A DNA stretch of 64,000 bases from Phyllobates terribilis (taxonomy: Eukaryota). A program made the translations under genes and the position numbers. Below, one piece after another: positions 14,731-30,706 of the stretch; the first letter of the stretch is position 1; every line of letters starts with the position of its first letter. The DNA lies in assembly GCF_046119375.1 (NCBI RefSeq), contig NW_027362769.1:108438001-108502000 (forward strand), read 5' to 3'. Under the pieces are notes generated by a model that was not told the DNA's origin, searched no databases, and saw only the letters and a program-made list of their open reading frames with translations.

Positions 14731-15839
14731 GATATTAGTCCATTGGGGTGACAGTAGGATGAGGAGTTTGTGCAGGTTGGGAATAGATGGCAATGGTGCT
14801 GGAGATGTGAGAAGTCAAAATCTTGTATGTTGTAAACTCTGCAGACAAGTCAAAGCTGGGAGAAGTTGGCATGGTGGTCTGGGCCTGATGAAAAAGACAG
14901 GAAAAGTGAACGACTCCATCAGAAAAAAGTCACCTGTAAATCACTATCTGAAACTGACTGTAATCTCTTATTATGTCTATCCTACACTATATGATCACAA
15001 TATGGCGGTAATATCAGTGTTGGTCTTTGTATAGATACTTAATTTCAGTAACAGCTTGGTTATCTGCCATGGTTCAACGATACCCATGATTAGGGTGCGC
15101 CACTGTAGTTGTAAACATAGTTGCCTGGTTAGGAGTCCATTGTAGATGAGTCGTGCCCACCTCCCCCATTTCTCTCTTGCTGACCCTCTATCTACGCCTC
15201 TGCTCTGTAGTAAAATACATGTAAGGATTTTATATATTCTATTTTAACTTTTAAATTAAACAAGCGATAAAGATTGAGCTCAGTTGACTTTTGAAACCAA
15301 TCTCTCCATGTCCATATTCATGGTTAGAAAATGCATTGGCGTTACTTTCTGAGGTTTTATAGACATTTACATTCTTTCTTGACTTGTCTAAAACAGATAG
15401 CGCTCATTACCATATGACCCAATAAATCTGCTGATGTATACAAGTCTGCCATCTAGGGTTCAGAATGATGAATTACTAGTCCAGGAATAAAGCTATAACT
15501 TTTGGGAATAATTTCTACAATTACAGCAACGACATTACCAAATCTTATTTATATGTTACAATGAGATGTGTGAAAGTAAATGTAACTTATTAATTTGACC
15601 TGAAAGAGAGATAATACAGTATGTTATCTAAGAGCAGTAAAAATCATATGGCCCAATGGCCTAATTTAAATATGTAATAACAAAGGATAAAAAACCTTGA
15701 ATAATATAGATAATAAAGTATGATGCAAACAAGTGCCCCCAAAAACAGTAACATACCCGCACAGTGAATTCTTCCACAGTACCCTCCACACGCACAGTAT
15801 GATGACCATACTGTACACCCCACACACACCCGCAACAAG

Positions 15840-17975
15840 GTATGGGGACCCCAACACAGTATGATGCCCCAATTCTGATCCCCACCCAGTCCTCCATACA
15901 GTGCATTGGGCCCACATAGTCCTCCATACAGTATAATGGGCCCACATAGTCCTCCATACAGTATAATGGCCCCACATAGTCCTCCATACAGTATAATGGG
16001 CCCACATAGTCCTCCATACAGTATAATGGGCCCACATAGTCCTCCATACAGTATAATGGGCCCCACCCAGTCCTCCATACAGTATAATGGGCCCCACATA
16101 GTCCTCCAAACAGTATAATGGCCCCACACAGTCCTCCATACAGTATAATGGGCCAACATAGTCCTCCATACAGAATAATGAGCCCCACATAGTCCTCCAT
16201 ACAGTATAATGGGCCCACATAGTCCTACATTCAGTAGAATGGGCCCACATAGTCCTCCATACAGTATAATGGGCCCACACAGTCCTCCATGCAGTATAAT
16301 GGGCCCACATAGTCTTCCATACAGTATAATGGGCCTCACATAGTCCTCCATACAGGATAATGGGCCTCACATAGTCCTCCATACAGGATAATGGGCCTCA
16401 CATAGTCCTCCATACAGAATAATGGGCCCCACATAGTCCTCCATACAGTATAATGGACCCCACATAGTCCTCCATACAGGATAATGGGCCTCACATAGTC
16501 CTCCATACAGGATAATAGGCCTCACATAGTCCTCCATACAGTATAATTGGCCCCACATAGTCTTCCATACAGTATAATGGGCCCCACATAGTCCTCCATA
16601 CAGAATAATGGGCCCCACATAGTCCTCCATACAGAATAATGGGCCTCACATAGTCCTCCATACAGAATAATGGGCCCCATATAGTCCTCCATACAGGATA
16701 ATGGGCCTCACATAGTCCTACATACAGTATAATGAACCCCACATAGTCCTCCATACAGGATAATAGGCCTCACATAGTCCTTCATACAGTATAATGGGCC
16801 TCACATAGTCCTCCATACAGTATAATGGGCCCCACATAGTCCTCCATACAGAATAATGGGCCCCACATAATCCTCCATACAGAATAATGGGCGTCACATA
16901 GTCCTCCATACAGGATAATGGGCCTCACAGAGTCCTCCATACAGGATAATAGGCCTCACATAATCCTCCATACAGAATAATGGGCGTCACATAGTCCTCC
17001 ATACAGTATAATGGGCCCACATAGTCCTCCATACAGTATAATGGGCCCCACCCAGTCCTCCATACAGTATAATGGGCCCCACATAGTCCTCCAAACAGTA
17101 TAATGGCCCCACACAGTCCTCCATACAGTATAATGGGCCAACATAGTCCTCCATACAGAATAATGAGCCCCACATAGTCCTCCATACAGTATAATGGGCC
17201 CACATAGTCCTACATTCAGTAGAATGGGCCCACATAGTCCTCCATACAGTATAATGGGCCCACACAGTCCTCCATACAGTATAATGGGCCCACATAGTCT
17301 TCCATACAGTATAATGGGCCTCACATAGTCCTCCATACAGGATAATGGGCCTCACATAGTCCTCCATACAGGATAATGGGCCTCACATTGTCCTCCATAC
17401 AGAATAATGGGCCCCACATAGTCCTCCATACAGAATAATGGCCCCCACATAGTCCTCCATACAGTATAATGGACCCCACATAGTCCTCCATACAGGATAA
17501 TGGGCCTCACATGGTCCTCCATACAGGATAATAGGCCTCACATAGTCCTTCATACAGTATAATGGGCCTCACATAGTCCTCCATACAGTATAATGGGCCC
17601 CACATAGTCCTCCATACAGAATAATGGGCCCCACATAGCCCTCCATCCAGAATAATGGGCCCCACATAATCCTCCATACAGAATAATGGGCGTCACATAG
17701 TCCTCCATACAGGATAATGGGCCTCACAGAGTCCTCCATACAGTATAATGGACCCCACATAGTCCTCCATACAGGTTAATGGGCCTCACATAGTCCTCCA
17801 TACAGGTTAATGGGCCTCACATAGTCCTCCATACAGGATAATGGGCCCCACATAGTCCTCCATACAGGGTAATGGGCCTCACATAGTCCTCCATACAGGG
17901 TAATGGGCCTCACATAGTCCTCCATTCAGGATAATGGGCCTCACATAGTCCTTCATACAGTATAATGGGCCCTGC
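15840..17975 (-). repeat. Minisatellite, 31/32 bp unit (G)CCCACATAGTCCTCCATACAGTATAATGGG, block 1
   Basis: About 65 tandem units; contains a ~985 bp higher-order duplication. Confidence 0.95.
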
Positions 17976-18779
17976 ATTGCCTTCTAAGAGCAATTATTTA
18001 AGTGGTGAAAAAAAAATCCAAAGTTTGCTAAAAAACAAAAAAATGGTGCCATTTCCAAGACCCGTAGCGTCTCCATTTTTTGGGATATGGGGCTGGGTGA
18101 GGGCTTATTTTGTGCGCGCCCGGCTGACGTTTTTATTGATATCATTTTGGGGTAGATCCGATGTTTTGATCGCCCGTTATTGCATTTTATTGCAATGTTG
18201 TGGCAACCAAAAAAGCGTAATTCTGGCGTTTAGAATTTTTTTCTCGTTACGCCGTTTACCGATCGGATTAATTCTTTTTTATATTGATAGATCGGGCGAT
18301 TCTGAACGCGGCGATACCAAATATGTGTATGTGTTTTTTTTTTTATTATTTTATTTTGAATGGGGCAAAAGGGGGGTGATTTAAACTTTTATATTTTTTT
18401 AATTTTTTTAATATTTTTAAAAAATATTTTTTTTACATTTACTGCATGCTTCAATAGTCTCCATTGGACACTAGAAACAGCAGTTGTCTGATTGTTTCTA
18501 CTGCATACAAGCGATGAGCAGATCACCTGTATGCAGGAGAAATGCTCCTGTGGTATGAGCGCCGACCACTGGGTGGCACTCATAGCAATTGAGACATGAC
18601 AACCACAGGGGACTGCTGCAGACCCTGGGTTGTCAACGCCACCCATTGGTGATTCGCGATCATGTGACGAGGTCACCAATGGGCGGGGCCTAGGACGCGC
18701 TTCCTGGAAGCGCGAGTTAAATGACACTGTCAGAGATTGACAGCGGCATTTAACTGGTTAACAGCCACGGGTGGAACGT
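17976..18779. mobile_element. Internal fragment of an abundant frog non-autonomous DNA element, interrupting the minisatellite
   Basis: Non-tandem sequence between two blocks of the same minisatellite; resembles common anuran Kolobok-like repeats (from memory); no termini identified. Confidence 0.5.
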
Positions 18780-19320
18780 GATAAAGTATAATGGCCCCAC
18801 ATAGTCCTCCATACACTATAATGGGCCCTGCATTGCCTTCCATACTGCATAATGGCCCCACACAATCCTCCATACAGTATAATGGGCCCTGAATTGCCTT
18901 CCATACAGTATAATGGGCCCCACACAATCCTCCATACAGGATAATGGCCCCACATAGTCCTCCATACAGTATAATGGGCCCCACATAGTCCTCCATACAG
19001 TATAATGGCCCCGCATAGTCCTCCATACAGAATAATGGCCCCACATAGTCTTCCATGCAGGATAATGGCCCCACATAGTCCTCCATACAGTATAATGGGC
19101 CCTATTTAGCCTTCCATACAGTATAATGGGCCCTGAATTGCCTTCCGTGCAGTATAATGGACCCCACATAGTCCTCCTTACAGTATAATGGGCCCCACAT
19201 AGTCCTCCATACAGTACAATGGGCTCTGAATTGCCTTCCATGCAGCATAATGGACTCCACATTGTCCTCCATACAGTATAATGGGCCCATATAGTCCTTT
19301 ATACAGTATAATGGACCCCA
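18780..19320 (-). repeat. Minisatellite block 2 (same 31/32 bp family, with CCCTGAATTGCC variants)
   Basis: Tandem units seen directly. Confidence 0.9.
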
Positions 19321-20384: not shown

Positions 20385-20697
20385 ACTTGCCTAATAATTC
20401 GGCACACAGTGTACACTGCTCAAAAAAATAAAGGGAACACTTAACAGAATATAACTCCAAGTAAATCAGACTTCTGTAAAATCAAACTGTCCACTTAGGA
20501 AGCAACACTGATTGACAATCAATTTCACATGCTGTTGTGCAAATGGAATAGACAATAGATGGAAATTATTGGCAATTATCAAGACACACTCAATAAAGGA
20601 GTAGTTGTGCAGGTGGGGACCACAAACCACATCTCAGTACCAATGCTTTCTGACTGATGTTTTGGTTACTTTTGAATGTTGGTTGTGCTTTCACACT
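20385..20697 (+). repeat. Inverted counterpart of 28870-29175: 27 bp TRT terminus + TA + 5' end of the DD34E Tc1
   Basis: 20385-20411 is the exact reverse complement of 29149-29175; 20414-20697 is the diverged reverse complement of 28870-29146. Confidence 0.85.
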
Positions 20698-20831
20698 GCC
20701 CTTCTACCCAGAGACTGTCCCTGTCACTTGCCGTGACTACCTGCCAGTCTTCCCTGGGAGCCACCCGCTTCCTTACAAGGACCGTCCCCTTGTATAGTTG
20801 CTCAGAGGTTCCACCTCCCAGACCCATTACA
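20696..20831 (+). repeat. 3' remnant (~135 bp) of the Gypsy 5' LTR
   Basis: Matches the end of the 3' LTR (to 26005) with 3 differences; ends TTACA. Confidence 0.9.
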
Positions 20832-20833
20832 GT

Positions 20834-20843
20834 TTGCTCGGGC
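20834..20843 (+). promoter_or_regulatory. Self-priming primer-binding site
   Basis: TTGCTCGGGC, 2 nt after the LTR end, is the perfect complement of LTR sequence GCCCGAGCAA (25284-25293) lying 30 nt after the TATA start. Confidence 0.8.
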
Positions 20844-20844
20844 C

Positions 20845-21795
20845 ATGGAACCCGGTGGCACCCAAACTCCCTCGCTCTCGGACCTATGCCATGAACTGTC
20901 CCGTCAGAGGTCCCAACAGGAGTCCATCCTGAGTCACCTGCGGAATGTCAACTCTCGCCTGGACACTCTGACTGCTCCACCAGCAACCACCGCTAGTGTC
21001 ATGACTCGCAACCCGGCAGCGCCGCTGCCCACCAATACCATGGCATCCTGCCCCGGTCCCCGGCTTTCTGCACCTCCTCGCTTCGGAGGCGACCCCGCTC
21101 TAGCCCGGGGCTTCATAAACCAGTGCACCCTGCACTTTGAACTCCTGGCCCACCAGTTTATCTCCGACCGAGCCAAAGTGGCATTCATCATGTCCCATCT
21201 CACTGGGGAGGCACTGGCATGGCTTAACCCTCTGTGGGAGAGAGGGGATCCCCTGGTGTCCGACCTGTCGTCTTTCCTCACTGCTTTCCGAAGGGTCTTC
21301 GATGAACCGGGACAAAAGACCTCATCTGCCTCCTCTTTGCTATGTCTCCGCCAAGGGAGTCTCACCGTGGGCCAATATGCCATACGGTTCCGCACCATCG
21401 CTTCTGAGCTTGCCTGGGATAATGAGGCCCTGGTGTCCGTCTTCTGGGAGGGCCTTTCCGGTCGGATTAAAGATGAGCTCGCCGGTCGGGACATTCCTAC
21501 CACCCTGAATGACCTGGTGTCTCTGGCTACCCGGATTGACATCCGGTTTCAAGAACGTACCAAAGAGACCACCCGTGAGAGAAGGTTTCCCCGCCTAGCT
21601 CCTACTTTCCAGAAACCTGTCTCCTCTTCTGTCACTCCCCGGGCGCACTCACCCGAGTCCATGCAGATCGACCTGACCAAGTTGGTCAAATCTCGCCAAG
21701 AGTCACGCCGAGCCGAGGGGAGCTGCTTCTATTGTGGCAGTAGGGAGCACCTGATTCGTTCCTGCCCGGAGAGGCCGGGAAACTCCAGTGTCTAG
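20845..21795 (+). CDS. gag: Gypsy Gag (PEG10/sushi-like capsid plus CCHC zinc knuckle), intact 316 aa
   Basis: PRFGGDPALARGFINQC, LRQGSLTVGQYAIRF, CFYCGSREHLIRSC. Confidence 0.9.
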   Translation: MEPGGTQTPSLSDLCHELSRQRSQQESILSHLRNVNSRLDTLTAPPATTASVMTRNPAAPLPTNTMASCPGPRLSAPPRFGGDPALARGFINQCTLHFELLAHQFISDRAKVAFIMSHLTGEALAWLNPLWERGDPLVSDLSSFLTAFRRVFDEPGQKTSSASSLLCLRQGSLTVGQYAIRFRTIASELAWDNEALVSVFWEGLSGRIKDELAGRDIPTTLNDLVSLATRIDIRFQERTKETTRERRFPRLAPTFQKPVSSSVTPRAHSPESMQIDLTKLVKSRQESRRAEGSCFYCGSREHLIRSCPERPGNSSV

Positions 21796-21822
21796 GACCG
21801 CTCAGAGAGGTCGCCCTAGACA
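21777..21822 (+). promoter_or_regulatory. -1 programmed ribosomal frameshift signal (gag-pol)
   Basis: G GGA AAC heptamer 21777-21783, 5-nt spacer, stem TGTCTAGG (21789-21796) / CCTAGACA (21815-21822); the -1 frame is open into LDSG protease and the 21984 ORF. Confidence 0.82.
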
Positions 21823-24800
21823 AAAATAAGTCCTCTCCAACCCTGACTTTATCTGTATCTATCTCCTGGGGAGAGAACCGTCACTTTGAACTCGCCCACC
21901 TGGACTCTGGATCCGCTGGAAACCTCATCTCTCAGTCCCTGGTTGAGAAATACCGTATTCCCACCAAGTCTCTGGCTGAACCTTTGTCAGTCGCCTCCGT
22001 GGATGGAAGACTCCTTCCGGTGACCATCCTGCTCGTCACGGAACCCATAACCCTGCAGGTGGGAATGCTGCACTCTGAGGTAATCTCCTTCCATGTGTTG
22101 TCCGGACTCTCCCACTCCCTATTGCTAGGTCTACCTTGGCTCCAGACACATGAACCCGTGTTGAACTGGCATTCTGGTGAAGTACTCCGGTGGGGGCCGG
22201 CCTGCCATAAGACCTGCCTGGTTCCGGTTCGTCCGGTTCGTCCTCCACCTATCCCAGCTAATTTACCCGGTCTTCCGGCTCCTTACTGGCCCTATGCTGA
22301 CGTCTTCGGTAAGAAGGAAGCAGAGACATTGCCCCCTCATAGGCCATATGATTGCCCGATCGACCTGGTACCCGGTGCCACTCCACCCCGTGGGCGTATT
22401 TATCCGTTGTCTGCGGCAGAAACCCGGGCCATGTCTGAGTACATAGAGGAGAATCTGGCCAGGGGATTCATCCGGAAGTCTACTTCCCCGGCTGGAGCCG
22501 GATTCTTCTTTGTCAAAAAAAAAGATGGCTCGCTTCGCCCCTGTATTGACTATAGAGGACTCAATCAGATCACGGTTAAAAATAAATACCCCCTTCCGCT
22601 CATCTCTGAGTTATTTGATCGTCTTAAAGGTGCCAGGATCTTCTCCAAGCTGGATCTACGCGGAGCATATAACCTGGTCCGTATCCGTCAGGGAGACGAG
22701 TGGAAAACAGCATTTAATACCCGGGACGGACACTATGAGTACCGTGTGATGCCCTTCGGTCTCTGCAATGCTCCCACCGTCTTCCAAGAACTGGTCAACG
22801 ACATCTTCCGTGACCTTCTTTACTCCTGCGTGGTGGTATACCTGGACGACATCTTGGTCTTCTCTCCGGATCTTCCCACACACCGGAGGGATGTTCGTCA
22901 GGTCCTCCTTAGGCTCAGGCAGAACCACCTCTATGCTAAATACGAGAAGTGCCTTTTTGAGCAGACCTCTCTTCCTTTCCTGGGCTATGTTATCTCCCAG
23001 ACAGGCTTGCGAATGGATCCCGAGAAGCTCTCTGCTGTCCTAAAGTGGCCCCGTCCGGAGGGCTTGAAGGCGATACAGCGATTCCTGGGCTTCGCTAATT
23101 ACTATCGTCTCTTCATTCCTCACTTCTCGTCACGGACTGCGCCCATATCTGCGCTCACCCGTAAGGGAGCAAATCCCAAGGTATGGTCATCCGAAGCTGA
23201 GGAGGCCTTCCTTTCCCTGAAACAAGCCTCTCCTCTGCCTCTGTGCTGCACCGTCCGGACTGCAACAAACAGTTCTACCTGGAGGTTGATGCCTCCACCT
23301 CTGGAGCCGGAGCGGTGCTCACCCAAAAGTCTTCCTCCGGGAGAATGGTAACCTGCGGCTTTTTCTCTAAAATCTTCTCCTCCTCTGAGCGCAATTATTC
23401 CATAGGAGACCGAGAACTGCTTGCCGTTAAATTGGCGCTGGAGGAATGGCGTTACCTGCTTGAAGGGGGCTCTATACCCGGTGATCATCTACACGGATCA
23501 CAAGAACCTGGCATATCTCCAAAATGCCCAGAGACTTAATCCACGTCAGGCCCGGTGGTCTTTGTTTTTTGCCCGCTTCGATTTCATCTTTCATTTCCGC
23601 CCGGCGGACAAAAATGTCAAAGCTGATGCCTTGTCCCGATCCTTCCTGTCCTCCGACCAAGAGGAGGAGCCTATGCACATTATCCACCCCTCCAAGGTGA
23701 TGAATGTGGCCCCCTTGGATTTGACTCGTCTTCCACCCGGCAAGACGTTCGTGGCGCCTCCAGACCGTGAGAGGGTTCTTCGCTGGGGTCATTCTTCTAA
23801 GCTAGCTGGCCATGCCGGCCAAAAGAAGACCTTCCTACTCATTTCCCGGCATTACTGGTGGTCTACCCTGCGTAAGGATGTGGTAGACTTCGTCTCTGCC
23901 TGTTCATCTTGTGGCCGCAACAAAGTTCCCAGACACTTACCAGCTGGTCATCTCCTGCCGCTTCCCACACCTGTTGCCCCGTGGCAACACATCGCTATGG
24001 ACTTCATTACCGATCTTCCTGTCTCTGCCGGGTGTACTGTCATTTGGGTGGTCGCGGACCGCTTCTCTAAAATGGCCCACTTCATTCCCCTGCCTGGTCT
24101 TCCGTCTGCACCTGAGCTGGCTAAGGACTTTATTCGCCATATCTTCCGTCTCCATGGCCTACCCCTCCACATCGTGTCGGATCGAGTGGTTCAGTTTACC
24201 TCACGCTTCTGGAGAGCCACATGTAAACTGCTGGACGTCACTCTGGACTTCTCCTCCGCTTACCACCCTCAGTCCAATGGTCAAGTGGAGCGGATCAATC
24301 AGATCCTTACCAGCTATCTCCGGCACTTTGTTAATGCCCACCATTCTGATTGGGTGGACCTCCTTCCTTGGGCCGAGTTCTCTTATAATAACCACGAGAG
24401 CGAATCCTCTTCCAAGTCCCCGTTCTTTATTGTCTATGGCCAGCACCCCCGGATTCCATTTCCCGTCTCCGCCTCTGTGGACAACCCTGCCATGCAGTCT
24501 CTTGTCAGCGAGTTTTCTACCATTTGGGAGAGTACTAGGTCTGCACTTCTTCAGTCCTCCGAGCGGATGAAGCGATATGCTGATAAGAGACGTCTGGATC
24601 CGCCACAATTCCGTCCGGGAGACAAGGTTTGGCTCTCTTCCAAACATGTACGGCTCAAGATACCCTCCTACAAGTTAGGTCCTCGCTTCATCGGTCCTTT
24701 TGAAATCCTCAGGCAAATTAATCCAGTGGCCTACAAATTAAAACTCCCGGCCACCTTACGGATTCCCAACTCCTTCCACGTATCTCTCCTCAAACCCGTT

Positions 24801-25016
24801 GTCTTTAACTCTTTTTCCAACAATCCAGGTACTCCTCCTGCTCTGGTTTCCGCTGAAGACGTCTTTGAGGTAGAAAGTATTCTGGCCACTAAGAGGGTAA
24901 GAGGAAAGACTTTTTTTTTGGTAGATTGGAAGGGGTTTGGTCCTGAGGAGAGAACATGGGAGCCCCGGGAGAACATCCATGCCCCTGTCATCCTTGCTAA
25001 ATTTCTCTCTGGCCTA

Positions 25017-25042
25017 AAAAAGGGGGGGCCTAAAGGGGGGGG
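25017..25042 (+). other. Gypsy polypurine tract
   Basis: AAAAAGGGGGGGCCTAAAGGGGGGGG then TAC|TGTAG. Confidence 0.8.
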
Positions 25043-25045
25043 TAC

Positions 25046-26005
25046 TGTAGCGTCGGCGTCCCTGCCCCCTGCTAGGCAGGGACGCCGTTCCCCTCACCTC
25101 TCCGCTCCGTGCCCGGCGGCTTCCTCCCGCTCTGCTGGCAGCGCGCGCTGCTTCCCGGCCTCTGTGCTTAGGGCGCGCGCGCTCCCCCTCTCTTAAAGGG
25201 GCCGTGTGCGCCGTCCTAAGGAGTCCCCGGCCAATGGCCGGAGGACCTCTCCATATATAAGGCACCTCCTCCAAAATGGAGGTGCCCGAGCAATGTTGTT
25301 GCAAAGCCTTCACTCTGCTTCAGCCCTCAGGTCCCGTTACCAGTTACCTGCCAGTCACCTGCCAGATTCCTGCTTGTTACCTGCCAGTCACCTGCCAGAT
25401 TCCTGCTTGATACCTGCCTGATATCCGCTTACCTGCTTGCAAGCCTGCGGTCCGACGGTCTGCCTTCCGACACCTGTCAGTCTGTCTATGGACCAGCTTG
25501 CCCGCTCACCTGGGAGCGCTCACCTGCTACCTGCCTGCTAGCCTACCTGGAGGCTCTGCCGTCACTTGCCGTGACCACCTGCCTGTCCAGAGACTCTTGC
25601 CCGCTCACCTGGGAGCGCTCACCTGCTACCTGCCTGCTAGCCTACCTGGAGGTTCTGCCGTCACTTGCCGTGACCACCTGCCTGTCCAGAGACTCTCGCC
25701 CGCTCACCTGGGAGCGCTCACCAGCCACCTGCCTGCTGTCCCTCTACCCAGAGACTGTCCCTGTCACTTGCCGTGACTACCTGCCCTTCTACCCTGAGAC
25801 TGTCCCTGTCACTTGCCGTGACTACCTGCCCTTCTACCCAGAGACTGTCCCTGTCACTTGCCGTGACTACCTGCCCTTCTACCCAGAGACTGTCCCTGTC
25901 ACTTGCCGTGACTACCTGCCCGTCTTCCCTGGGAGCCACCCGCTTCCTTACAAGGACCGCCCCTTGTATAGTTGCTCAGAGGTTCCACCTCCCAGACCCG
26001 TTACA
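25046..26005 (+). repeat. Gypsy 3' LTR (960 bp) with internal tandem repeats
   Basis: TGTAG...TTACA; CCAAT ~25230, TATATAA 25254-25260; 33-bp, 108-bp and 45-bp tandem units. Confidence 0.92.
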
Positions 26006-28624: not shown

Positions 28625-29148
28625 CTCCTCCTGTTCCTCGTTGCACAAAGGTGGAGGTAGCGGTCCTGCTGCTGGGTTGCTGCCCTCCTACGGCCCCCTC
28701 CACGTCTCCTGGTGTACTGGCCTGTCTCCTGGTAGCGCCTCCAGCCTCTGGACACTACGCTGACAGACACAGCAAACCTTCTTGCCACAGCTCGCATTGA
28801 TTTGCCATCCTGGATGAGCTGCACTACCTGAGCAACTTCTGTGGGTTGTAGAGTCCGTCTCATGCTACCACGAGTGTGAAAGCACAACCAACATTCAAAA
28901 GTGACCAAAACATCAGCCAGAAAGCATTGGTACTGAGAACCACCTGCAGAACCACTCCTTTATTGAGGGTGTCTTGATAATTGCCAATAATTTCCATCTA
29001 TTGTCTATTCCATTTGCACAAAAGCATGTGAAATTGATTGTCAATCAGTGCTGCTTCCTAAGTGGACAGTTTGATTTCACAGAAGTTTGATTAACTTAGA
29101 GTTATATTCTGTTGTTTGAATGTTCCCTTTATTTTTTTGAGCAGTGTA

Positions 29149-30706
29149 CACTGTGTGCCGAATTATTAGGCAAGTTGTATTTTATAGGATTATTTTATTA
29201 TTGATGAACAACTATGTTCTCAATCAACCCAAAAGACGCATAAATATCCAAGCTTAATATTTTTGGAAGTTGGAGTGTTTTTTTTTTTTAGATTTGGCTA
29301 TCTTAGGAGGATATCTGTTTGTGCAGGTAACTATTACTGTGCCGAATTATTAGGCAACTTAATAAAAACCAAATAAAATCCCATCTCGCTTGTTTATTTC
29401 CACCAGGTAAACCAATATCAGTGCACAAAATTTAGAAATAAACATTTCTGACATGCAAAAACCAAAAAAATTACTGATCAATATAGCCACCTTTCTTTAT
29501 GATGACACTCAACAGCCTTACATCCATAGATTCTGTCAGTTGCTTGATCTGTTTTCGATCAACATTGCGTGCAGCAGCCACCACAGCCTCCCAGACACTG
29601 TTCCGAGAGGTGTACTGTTTTCCCTCCCTGTAGATCTCACATTTTATGATGGACCACAGGTTCTCTATGGGGTTCAGATCAGGTGAACAAGGGGGCCATG
29701 TCATTATTTTTTCTTCTTTTAGACCTTTACTGGCCAGCCACGCTGTGGAGTAGTTGGATGCATGTGATGGAGCATTGTCCTGCATGAAAATCATGTTTTT
29801 CTTGAACGATACCGACTTCTTCCTGTACCACTGCTTGAAGAAGTTGTCTTCTAGAAACTGGCAGTAGGTCTGGGAGTTGAACTTCACTCCATCCTCAACC
29901 CGAAAAGGTCCCACAAGTTCATCTTTGATGATACCAGCCCATACCAGTACCCCACCTCCACCTTGCTGGCGTCCGAGTCGGAGTGGAGCTCTCTGCCTTT
30001 TACTGATCCAGCCTCTGGCCCATCCATCTGGCCCATCAAGAGTCACTCTCATTTCATCAGTCCATAAAACCTTTGAAAAATCAGTCTTAAGATATTTCTT
30101 GGCCCATTCTTGACGTTTTATCTTATGTTTCTTGTTCAAAGGTGGTCGTTTTTCAACCTTCCTTACCTTGGCCATGTCCCTGAGTAGCGCACACCTTGTG
30201 CTTTTTGATACTCCAGTAACGTTGCAGCTATGAAATATGGTAAAACTGGTGGCGAATGGCATCTTGGCAGCTTCACGCGTGATTTTTTTCAATTCATGGG
30301 CAGTTATTTTGCGCCTTTTTTGGCCAACACGCTTCTTGCGACCCTGTTGGCTATTTGCCATGAAACGCTTGATTGTTCGGTGATCACGCGTCAAAAGTTT
30401 GAAAATTTCAAGACTGCTGCTTCCCTCTGCAAGACATCTCACAATTTTGGACTTTTCAGAGCCCGTCAAATCTCTCTTCTGACCCATTTTGCCCAAGGAA
30501 AGGAAGTTGCCTAATAATTAAGCACACCTTTTATAGGGTGTTGATGTCATTAGTCAACACCCCTCCTCATTACAGAGATGCACATCACCAGATTTACTTA
30601 ATTGGTAGTTGGCTCTCAAGCCTATGCAGCTTGGAGTAGGACAACATGTATAAAAAGTATCAAAGTGATCAAAATACTCATTTGCCTAATAATTCTGCAC
30701 ACAGTG
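29149..30706 (-). mobile_element. Full-length Tc1/mariner DD37E (TRT-type) element
   Basis: TIRs CACTGTGTGCCGAATTATTAGGCAA / TTGCCTAATAATTCTGCACACAGTG; TA on the left, TGTA(TA)n on the right. Confidence 0.93.
29471..30496 (-). CDS. Intact DD37E transposase (341 aa; probable start MGQKRD at 30487)
   Basis: Uninterrupted ORF; WTDE, QDNAP and NPIENLW with 37 residues counted between the second D and E. Confidence 0.88.
   Translation of the reverse strand: MGKMGQKRDLTGSEKSKIVRCLAEGSSSLEIFKLLTRDHRTIKRFMANSQQGRKKRVGQKRRKITAHELKKITREAAKMPFATSFTIFHSCNVTGVSKSTRCALLRDMAKVRKVEKRPPLNKKHKIKRQEWAKKYLKTDFSKVLWTDEMRVTLDGPDGWARGWISKRQRAPLRLGRQQGGGGVLVWAGIIKDELVGPFRVEDGVKFNSQTYCQFLEDNFFKQWYRKKSVSFKKNMIFMQDNAPSHASNYSTAWLASKGLKEEKIMTWPPCSPDLNPIENLWSIIKCEIYREGKQYTSRNSVWEAVVAAARNVDRKQIKQLTESMDVRLLSVIIKKGGYIDQ

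Follow-up and report, generated by a model that had tools for sequence, protein, structure and literature searches.

The window, the whole stretch of DNA analysed here, comprises 64,000 nucleotides of the Phyllobates terribilis genome, which spans 10.57 Gb. On its + strand lies a dead copy of a chromodomain Gypsy retrotransposon. An open gag of 316 aa (20845-21795) carries DUF4939, Retrotrans_gag and Ty3 capsid domains and a CCHC knuckle that can be read in the translation. This gag is of the sushi/PEG10 kind: PEG10 was its sole solved-structure match (E 3e-7), and its named relatives come from Ranitomeya, Pyxicephalus and fishes. The pol frame encoding protease and reverse transcriptase (21744-23351) lies in the -1 frame, and a heptamer in the gag frame, G GGA AAC (21777-21783), is predicted to be slippery and to allow -1 gag-pol frameshifting. 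Pol loses its frame near 23230, a middle piece of RNase H follows in another frame (23201-23539), and a third segment (23406-25045) holds the end of RNase H, the integrase (H2C2, rve and a Tf2-1-like SH3) and, at the integrase C-terminus, a chromodomain (PF00385, E 2e-11, with HP1/CBX matches). The copy is dead because frameshifts near 23230 and near 23470 break RNase H. Its gene order, gag and then PR-RT-RH-IN, its TG..CA LTRs and its polypurine tract are those of a Ty3/gypsy chromovirus, and together with the gag and the chromodomain they confirm the chromoviral Gypsy identity given in a preliminary description of this DNA.

The 3' LTR (25046-26005; 960 nt, TG...CA) follows a polypurine tract (25032-25042) and the trinucleotide TAC. 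It contains internal tandem repeats and a TATA box (TATATAA, 25254-25260) and has no AATAAA; its ends are confirmed by the 5-bp target duplications that flank relatives of the window copy. Only the last 136 nt of the 5' LTR remain (20696-20831, ending ...TTACA), 97.8% identical to the end of the 3' LTR, while the rest, with its U3, TATA box and R, has been lost. The 3' LTR therefore serves as a stand-in for the lost 5' LTR, a point that, like the break in RNase H, goes beyond the preliminary description. The sequence flanking the element presumably resembles Tc1, and four ORFs had no Pfam match.

Between the 5' LTR and the gag ATG (20845) lie 13 nt, GTTTGCTCGGGCC (20832-20844), which contain no TGG. 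Past a two-base spacer, GT (20832-20833), comes the candidate primer-binding site, TTGCTCGGGC (20834-20843). Its reverse complement occurs without a mismatch as GCCCGAGCAA (25284-25293); this stretch begins 30 nt past the first T of the TATA box (25254) and represents, in the 3' LTR copy, the predicted first ten bases of R and the candidate self-primer. Both observations had been made in the preliminary description, the short gap lacking a TGG-type tRNA site and the perfect 10-nt complement 30 nt after the TATA start, and both hold to the base. Each of the two 10-mers occurs once on the + strand of the window, and the chance expectation of the match is 8e-4 anywhere in the 960-nt LTR and 9e-6 in an 11-nt interval at TATA+30. 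Intact 5' LTRs of other copies carry the same 10-mer as 25284-25293. A tRNA site at the TGG of 20846 was considered and rejected, as this TGG is part of the gag start codon and lies 14 nt from the LTR, and the bases downstream of it vary with the gag codons.

We compared the pairing across 16 families, which are relatives of one another and were picked as perfect pairs, so that permutation values overstate their independence. No two of the 16 families share a primer-site 10-mer; every family's site is matched perfectly by its own LTR, and 0 of 240 cross-family swaps give a perfect duplex; covariation across subfamilies, which the preliminary description had left to be examined, is thus present. 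The families reach down to about 30% gag identity, and nine of the ten duplex columns vary among them. A junction pattern that left the primer site free returned 23,158 matches genome-wide, against 8 for controls, marking the family as very large. Among the first 30 matches, which we scored, 26 pair perfectly and four have one mismatch. Of 205 junction loci, 150 were anchored and 55 could not be. At 20 of the 150, eight pairs or fewer were found; these 20 comprise copies that are old, sets picked for their variant sites and, in about five cases, likely misregistered anchors. Left out of this set were DUF4939 loci with no recognisable junction (13/30 and 6/20), two duplicate loci and 5/20 polypurine-tract loci. 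PF03732 was tried as a source of further families and set aside: its 150 matches all lay on small contigs, and the 30 that were read were other elements.

Blind prediction of the primer site from 3' LTRs was exact in seven of eight testable copies and differed by one change in the other; in a third family the sequence was correct and the position one base nearer the LTR. These results bear on whether the complementarity arose by chance and was simply inherited from one ancestor, a reading that gains something from the relatedness of all the families, from the invariance of duplex column 1 and from the near-constancy of columns 2, 5 and 7, but that has to face at least 15 two-sided changes, the lack of any perfect swap and the success of the blind predictions. 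It is already refuted by covariation, and we give it next to no credence.

To place the pairing relative to the promoter, the 16 LTRs were aligned gap-free on the 10-mer. A or T occupies each position from -30 to -24 in 13-16 of the 16; base -1 is T in 15 and C in one, and base +1 is G in all. In nearly all families, then, a Y|G 30 nt past the TATA box marks the start of the match. Pairing extends to base -1 in none of the 16, as expected if the RNA physically ends at +1. At base +11 there is a Watson-Crick pair in two families and a G-U pair in six, the duplex being one of ten Watson-Crick pairs. This promoter geometry suggests that transcription begins at the G of 25284, a base-exact start-site prediction within reach of existing CAGE or 5' RACE methods. 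Contigs from four runs, compared with the LTR, revealed no begin or end site; as contig depth is no guide to the ranking of parts, we draw nothing from them.

We propose, with a probability of roughly 0.88, that in the window's family the primer of reverse transcription is not a tRNA but the opening ten or so bases of the element's own RNA. The transcript would start at the Y|G 30 nt after the TATA box. By analogy with Tf1, the RNA 5' end would fold back onto the primer site and be cut by RNase H near base 10/11; extension of the 3' end so released would then cross the two-base spacer into U5. Modelling further suggests a stem between a U5 arm and the bases just past the primer site, a stem that in the window's family covers the gag AUG. 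It also suggests that a U3/R hairpin, possible only in the 3' R copy of this subclade, may mask that copy, which would leave the 5' end as the free one. The preliminary description had predicted self-priming by a 10-nt duplex, and covariation, promoter geometry and folding all argue for it. Among control elements with TGG sites, such an upstream complement was found in 0 of 27 in the roughly 940 nt examined.

Alternatively, a host tRNA half, a tRNA fragment or another small RNA could prime, with the duplex doing another job such as dimerisation, packaging or translation control. Passages in PMC6317226 report half-tRNA priming in Ty1/copia lineages. In our own comparison the best tRNA matches to the primer sites had 2-4 mismatches, within an incomplete tRNA set that covered tRNA-Lys(TTT) alone (all 65 Rfam tRNA calls). 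We nonetheless regard priming by a host small RNA as very improbable. Within the 8 nt that follow the LTR, TGG occurs at 0 of 205 junctions. The site takes 16 sequences up to 8/10 bases apart, so one host RNA cannot fit all of them, and each is tracked by its own LTR. The duplex also occupies the primer position with the right polarity. Finally, the ten duplex states seen in at least three copies contain no G-U pair, whereas family-wide G-U pairs do occur in the U5-leader stem (29/38, 5/7 and 5/5 copies); a duplex free of G-U pairs looks as if an enzyme had to read it.

Element RNA could also supply the primer from the 3' R copy, either as the RNA 3' end or by a cut there, in place of the 5' end. 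In a variant of this alternative, the 5' end of a co-packaged second RNA would prime; sequence cannot separate that variant from the explanation preferred here. Both R copies contain the 10-mer. In the stretch that starts 230 nt upstream of R and runs to the end of the LTR, AATAAA is absent from all 16 LTRs and ATTAAA occurs in two; T and G are abundant in the 20 nt that follow the 10-mer (0.45-0.80). The RNA 3' end could therefore fall near the 10-mer. Against an origin in the 3' copy, pairing halts exactly at the initiator-like Y|G in 16/16 families, and in the window's family the U3 sequence blocks the helix: folded from +1, R-U5-PBS gave helix probabilities of 0.55-0.83 in 5/5 intact copies, and the same five folded from -30 gave 0.01 or less. 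Over all 18 folds the probability was at least 0.5 in 12 and below 0.5 in six, three of them at 0.00; the preliminary description had named this folding as a check, and its outcome supports the helix. We also looked for copying of the primer into the site and found no footprint of it, a result that weighs against the preferred 5'-end explanation. Where base +7 of the 5' LTR had changed, the site followed in 0/14; where the primer site had changed, a matching R was found in 0/27. In 4/4 independent insertions with R changed in both LTRs, the site kept the old family state, which is weak evidence against the 3' copy because a copying error gives the same picture under either model. On balance we think priming from the 3' copy improbable and retain the RNA 5' end as the preferred primer.

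Two further structures accompany the priming duplex. In the window, the U5 arm GGTTCCA (20807-20813) pairs with a leader arm, TGGAACC (20846-20852), across the gag start codon. Across families, this U5-leader stem scored -15.3 kcal/mol for own pairs vs -11.4 for swapped pairs, with 0 of 20,000 permutations as low and two position controls null; it is clear in short-leader families and weak in four long-leader families. A 9-bp hairpin (25261-25269 with 25278-25286) runs from the TATA box to predicted transcript base +3. Such a U3/R hairpin is not a general feature of the families: z falls below -2 in 4/16, and the permutation p is 0.054. The other flanking 'pretzel' stem, joining the LTR end with the LTR, found no support at two candidate partner regions (p 0.27 and 0.08). 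We can offer a joint reading of these structures only tentatively, and consider it doubtful as a whole. In this vertebrate subclade the hairpin would lock the 3' R copy, and the 5' copy, having no upstream arm, would pair with the primer site; the U5-leader stem would bury the gag AUG, making priming and translation alternative folds of one RNA. As these LTRs have no AATAAA, a further role of the hairpin may be to place an A/T-rich box from upstream beside a cleavage site just past the primer; R would then be very short.

Fission yeast provides proof of self-priming, whereas for vertebrates the literature examined only infers it. Passages in PMC7175516 describe experiments showing that Tf1 uses an 11-base primer, cleaved between bases 11 and 12, and passages in 10.1101/2022.12.06.519325 call self-priming a common feature of the Tf1/sushi group. 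Those of PMC6317226 also treat the Tf1 mechanism and its extension to this group. The preliminary description, in which the mechanism was established for Tf1 and proposed for vertebrate Tf1/sushi elements, agrees with these passages.

The window's element shares with Tf1/Tf2 of Schizosaccharomyces pombe and Tj1 of S. japonicus an RNA 5' end complementary to a site just past the 5' LTR, and a stem joining the bases after that site with the LTR. It differs in several details. The present families have a 10-base primer, with a 1-2 base spacer and 370-1,600 nt from primer to LTR end; two duplexes are supported, whereas the Tf1 'pretzel' has three, and in the window copy the gag AUG lies one base past the site, inside the stem. 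Fission-yeast gags have neither CCHC nor a -1 shift, according to passages in 10.1101/2022.12.06.519325, whereas the present gag has a CCHC and pol lies in the -1 frame. Closer are the vertebrate Tf1/sushi chromoviruses (GyDB V-clade: Sushi-ichi, Amn), with which the element shares domain order, chromodomain, CCHC gag, -1 gag-pol frame, PEG10-like capsid, the lack of a site for a tRNA 3' end and a primer site that pairs with the predicted RNA 5' end. We found no categorical difference from them, the pairing in the present families having been examined by covariation over 16; our gag tree holds gags of this genome alone. The present LTRs lack AATAAA, whereas a mainly zebrafish Sushi LTR profile, described in PMC3601003, has a clear one. 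In other hosts, self-priming is predicted for plant Tcn1-clade chromoviruses and for TAR, a Ty1/copia element, from a complement of at least 10 bp placed 0-5 bp after the 5' LTR (passages in PMC6317226).

The Phyllobates terribilis genome thus offers comparative support, in 16 covarying duplexes and in blind predictions that were borne out, from a family with over 20,000 junctions. The literature we searched contains no covariation or start-site test of vertebrate elements; Butler et al. (2001), reportedly on vertebrate Tf1/sushi elements, or the repeat databases may contain one. As far as sequence comparison can tell, the standing proposal of vertebrate self-priming appears confirmed and is left unchanged. 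What the analysis contributes to the known mechanism is the covariation, the U5 stem that spans the gag AUG, and the U3/R hairpin, which is predicted to hide the 3' primer copy. Annotators, too, gain a rule, applicable to elements scored by tRNA-based LTR finders as having no primer site.

The chromodomain Gypsy retrotransposon in the window carries gag, protease, RT, RNase H, integrase and chromodomain in Gypsy order. Its 316-aa gag matches DUF4939, Retrotrans_gag and the Ty3 capsid, among solved structures only PEG10 resembles it, and its named relatives come from frogs and fishes; Ty3 is the top match for RT and integrase. A putative slippery G GGA AAC lies in the gag frame upstream of pol, which is in the -1 frame. 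This copy is dead, because RNase H is broken by two frameshifts and the promoter is lost, and it belongs to a very large family (23,158 junction-pattern matches versus 8 for a reversed-pattern control).

The 5' LTR of the window copy, reduced to 136 nt, ends at 20831 and is followed on the forward strand by a GT spacer, a candidate primer-binding site TTGCTCGGGC (20834-20843) and the gag start (20845). Owing to this truncation, the partner of the site is found in the 3' LTR (25046-26005, forward strand), where the exact complement occupies 25284-25293, 30 nt past the first T of TATATAA. The preliminary description had placed site, LTR end and partner correctly to the base. The chance of a 10-nt complement is 8e-4 over the whole LTR and 9e-6 within an 11-nt interval at the observed place, and the LTR 10-mer's 3' end is directed across the spacer toward U5, the correct polarity for priming. 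Self-priming with a 10-nt duplex, as proposed from the window copy, is likely in light of covariation, blind predictions and promoter geometry; judged from sequence, we put the probability that the family primes from its own RNA 5' end at about 0.88.

Missing complementarity in other copies had been named as evidence against this reading, and complementarity is present: among the first 30 hits to a junction pattern that imposed nothing on the ten site bases, 26 form perfect duplexes and 4 have one mismatch. At 205 junction loci, R was located via a U3 anchor borrowed from a different locus; anchoring failed in 55, and the remaining 150 comprise 89 perfect duplexes, 41 with nine pairs and 20 with eight or fewer, a mismatch count inflated by several sets selected for variant sites. 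The 5' R, 3' R and site are identical in 32 of 51 two-LTR copies. Elsewhere the odd one out is the 5' R (5), the 3' R (6) or the site (4), or all differ (4), which is the pattern of post-insertion decay.

Across families, site and LTR 10-mer change together, as the covariation check proposed at the outset anticipated, giving 16 distinct perfect duplexes that differ from one another at up to 8 of 10 bases. Nine of the ten columns vary, any tree requires at least 15 two-sided changes, and no cross-family swap (0/240) gives a perfect match, among families that are relatives and were selected as perfect pairs. In a gag tree of 14 of the 16 (the other two lacked a gag match good enough to use), the families fall into several clades. 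In a selection-free test, site predictions were written from 3' LTRs alone and the 5' ends fetched afterwards: in 7 of 8 testable copies both the sequence and the position of the site were as predicted, and the eighth departed from the prediction by a single base change. All three loci of a third predicted cluster lack a 5' LTR; a relative found via the LTR end has the predicted sequence one base closer to the LTR.

Several relatives in the same genome vary this architecture. One clade (loci L262-L264, L275, L286-L316), whose spacer is a single base and whose leader is 90-120 nt long, retains the 10-base duplex, and its polypurine side is still TAC. Short elements with LTRs longer than 1.5 kb (L265-L273, L279) keep a perfect duplex and an 89-aa gag match; no integrase match was found in them, and they are likely non-autonomous. 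A young family (L211-L216), with LTR pairs 99.5-100% identical, has a single long ORF of 1,434-1,524 aa and therefore no -1 shift.

A TGG-type tRNA site had been reported lacking in the window copy, and TGG occurs within the first 8 nt in 0 of 205 junctions. The internal tRNA-match comparison covered Lys(TTT) only. Among 27 control elements with TGG sites, none has an upstream complement within the roughly 940 nt covered. The tRNA-Lys(TTT) genes form large tandem arrays at C1:816.9-817.9 Mb (spacing ~1,050 nt) and C11:574-576 Mb. The best 150 PF03732 hits all lie on small unplaced contigs (C2755-C8306), possibly plant contamination of the assembly; 27 of 30 such loci examined (L181-L210) have a TGGCGCCG primer site, and their gag resembles that of plant Athila.

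Gapless alignment of the 16 families on the 10-mer revealed A/T in 13-16 of them at each position between -30 and -24; base -1 is a pyrimidine and base +1 is G, as in a promoter composed of a TATA box and an initiator. This promoter-like layout predicts an RNA start at +1, and base -1 is paired in 0 of 16 families. Folding of R-U5-PBS, likewise suggested earlier, favoured the helix in 5/5 intact family copies and 12/18 folds overall, its probability reaching 0.5 in 12 and staying below in 6. For the five intact copies it was 0.55-0.83 when the RNA started at +1 and at most 0.01 from -30, where the helix is lost because a 9-bp hairpin occupies bases +1 to +3.

Copying of the primer into the site would be expected to carry R changes over to it. 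At base +7, the site followed a changed 5' LTR in 0 of 14 cases (among 30 of 176 hits), and changed sites had a matching R in 0 of 27 (among 30 of 106 hits; 3 without R). Four independent insertions with the +7 change in both LTRs still have the old state in the site. No copying footprint was seen at +7, and the primer-source argument therefore rests on geometry. Among 100 listed hits, LTR groups sharing a +7 change (L377-L383) comprise 6 pairs and 1 trio, all G to A; a single duplicated insertion accounts for three of the six pairs, and solo LTRs in tandem make up the trio. Tandem elements with a shared LTR, in which a polypurine tract lies upstream of the 5' LTR, occur at L015 and L378, and excerpts of PMC11042837 describe shared-LTR tandems in Tf1/Tf2.

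According to 10.1101/2022.12.06.519325, Tf1 requires three duplexes, and self-priming is a common trait of the fungal and vertebrate Tf1/sushi group. In our families, a putative stem joining U5 to bases 3' of the site finds support: the mean is -15.3 kcal/mol for own pairs and -11.4 for swapped ones, and its core is altered on both sides (GGTTCCA/TGGAACC, GGAATCA/TGGTTCC, AGACTCCT/AGGAGTCT). Two position controls of this stem were null, and against base shuffles z fell below -2 in only 6/16 families, the stem being weak in those with a long LTR-to-gag leader; in short-leader families it spans the gag AUG. The LTR-end-side stem found no support (p 0.27 and 0.08). G-U pairs occur family-wide in the U5 stem and not in the primer duplex, among ten states seen in at least 3 copies.

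The priming we infer works as in Tf1, where, according to PMC7175516, bases 1 to 11 of the RNA anneal to the site and RNase H cuts between 11 and 12. The family differs in that its duplex has 10 bases and one flanking stem is unsupported. All its tested protein features agree with membership of the vertebrate Tf1/sushi clade, judged without a reference tree. Literature coverage, without the Tf1 primary papers, Butler 2001 and supplements, yielded no covariation test for vertebrate elements. The sole unusual lead is a U3/R hairpin that, in a model, would mask the 3' R copy and leave the 5' copy free to prime, a switch we consider unlikely; the remainder matches the known kind of self-priming.

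AATAAA is absent from all LTRs examined (25046-26005 and 16 family representatives), ATTAAA occurs in 2/16, and a T/G-rich stretch directly follows the primer 10-mer in the window LTR and the 16 representatives. Minisatellite arrays with a 30-31 nt unit lie upstream of the element (15800-19300). Around it is a DNA-transposon-like end in two inverted copies, 90% identical (20385-20697, 26006 onward, 28873-29175), which we take to be Tc1-like; the left one is fused to the LTR remnant by deletion.
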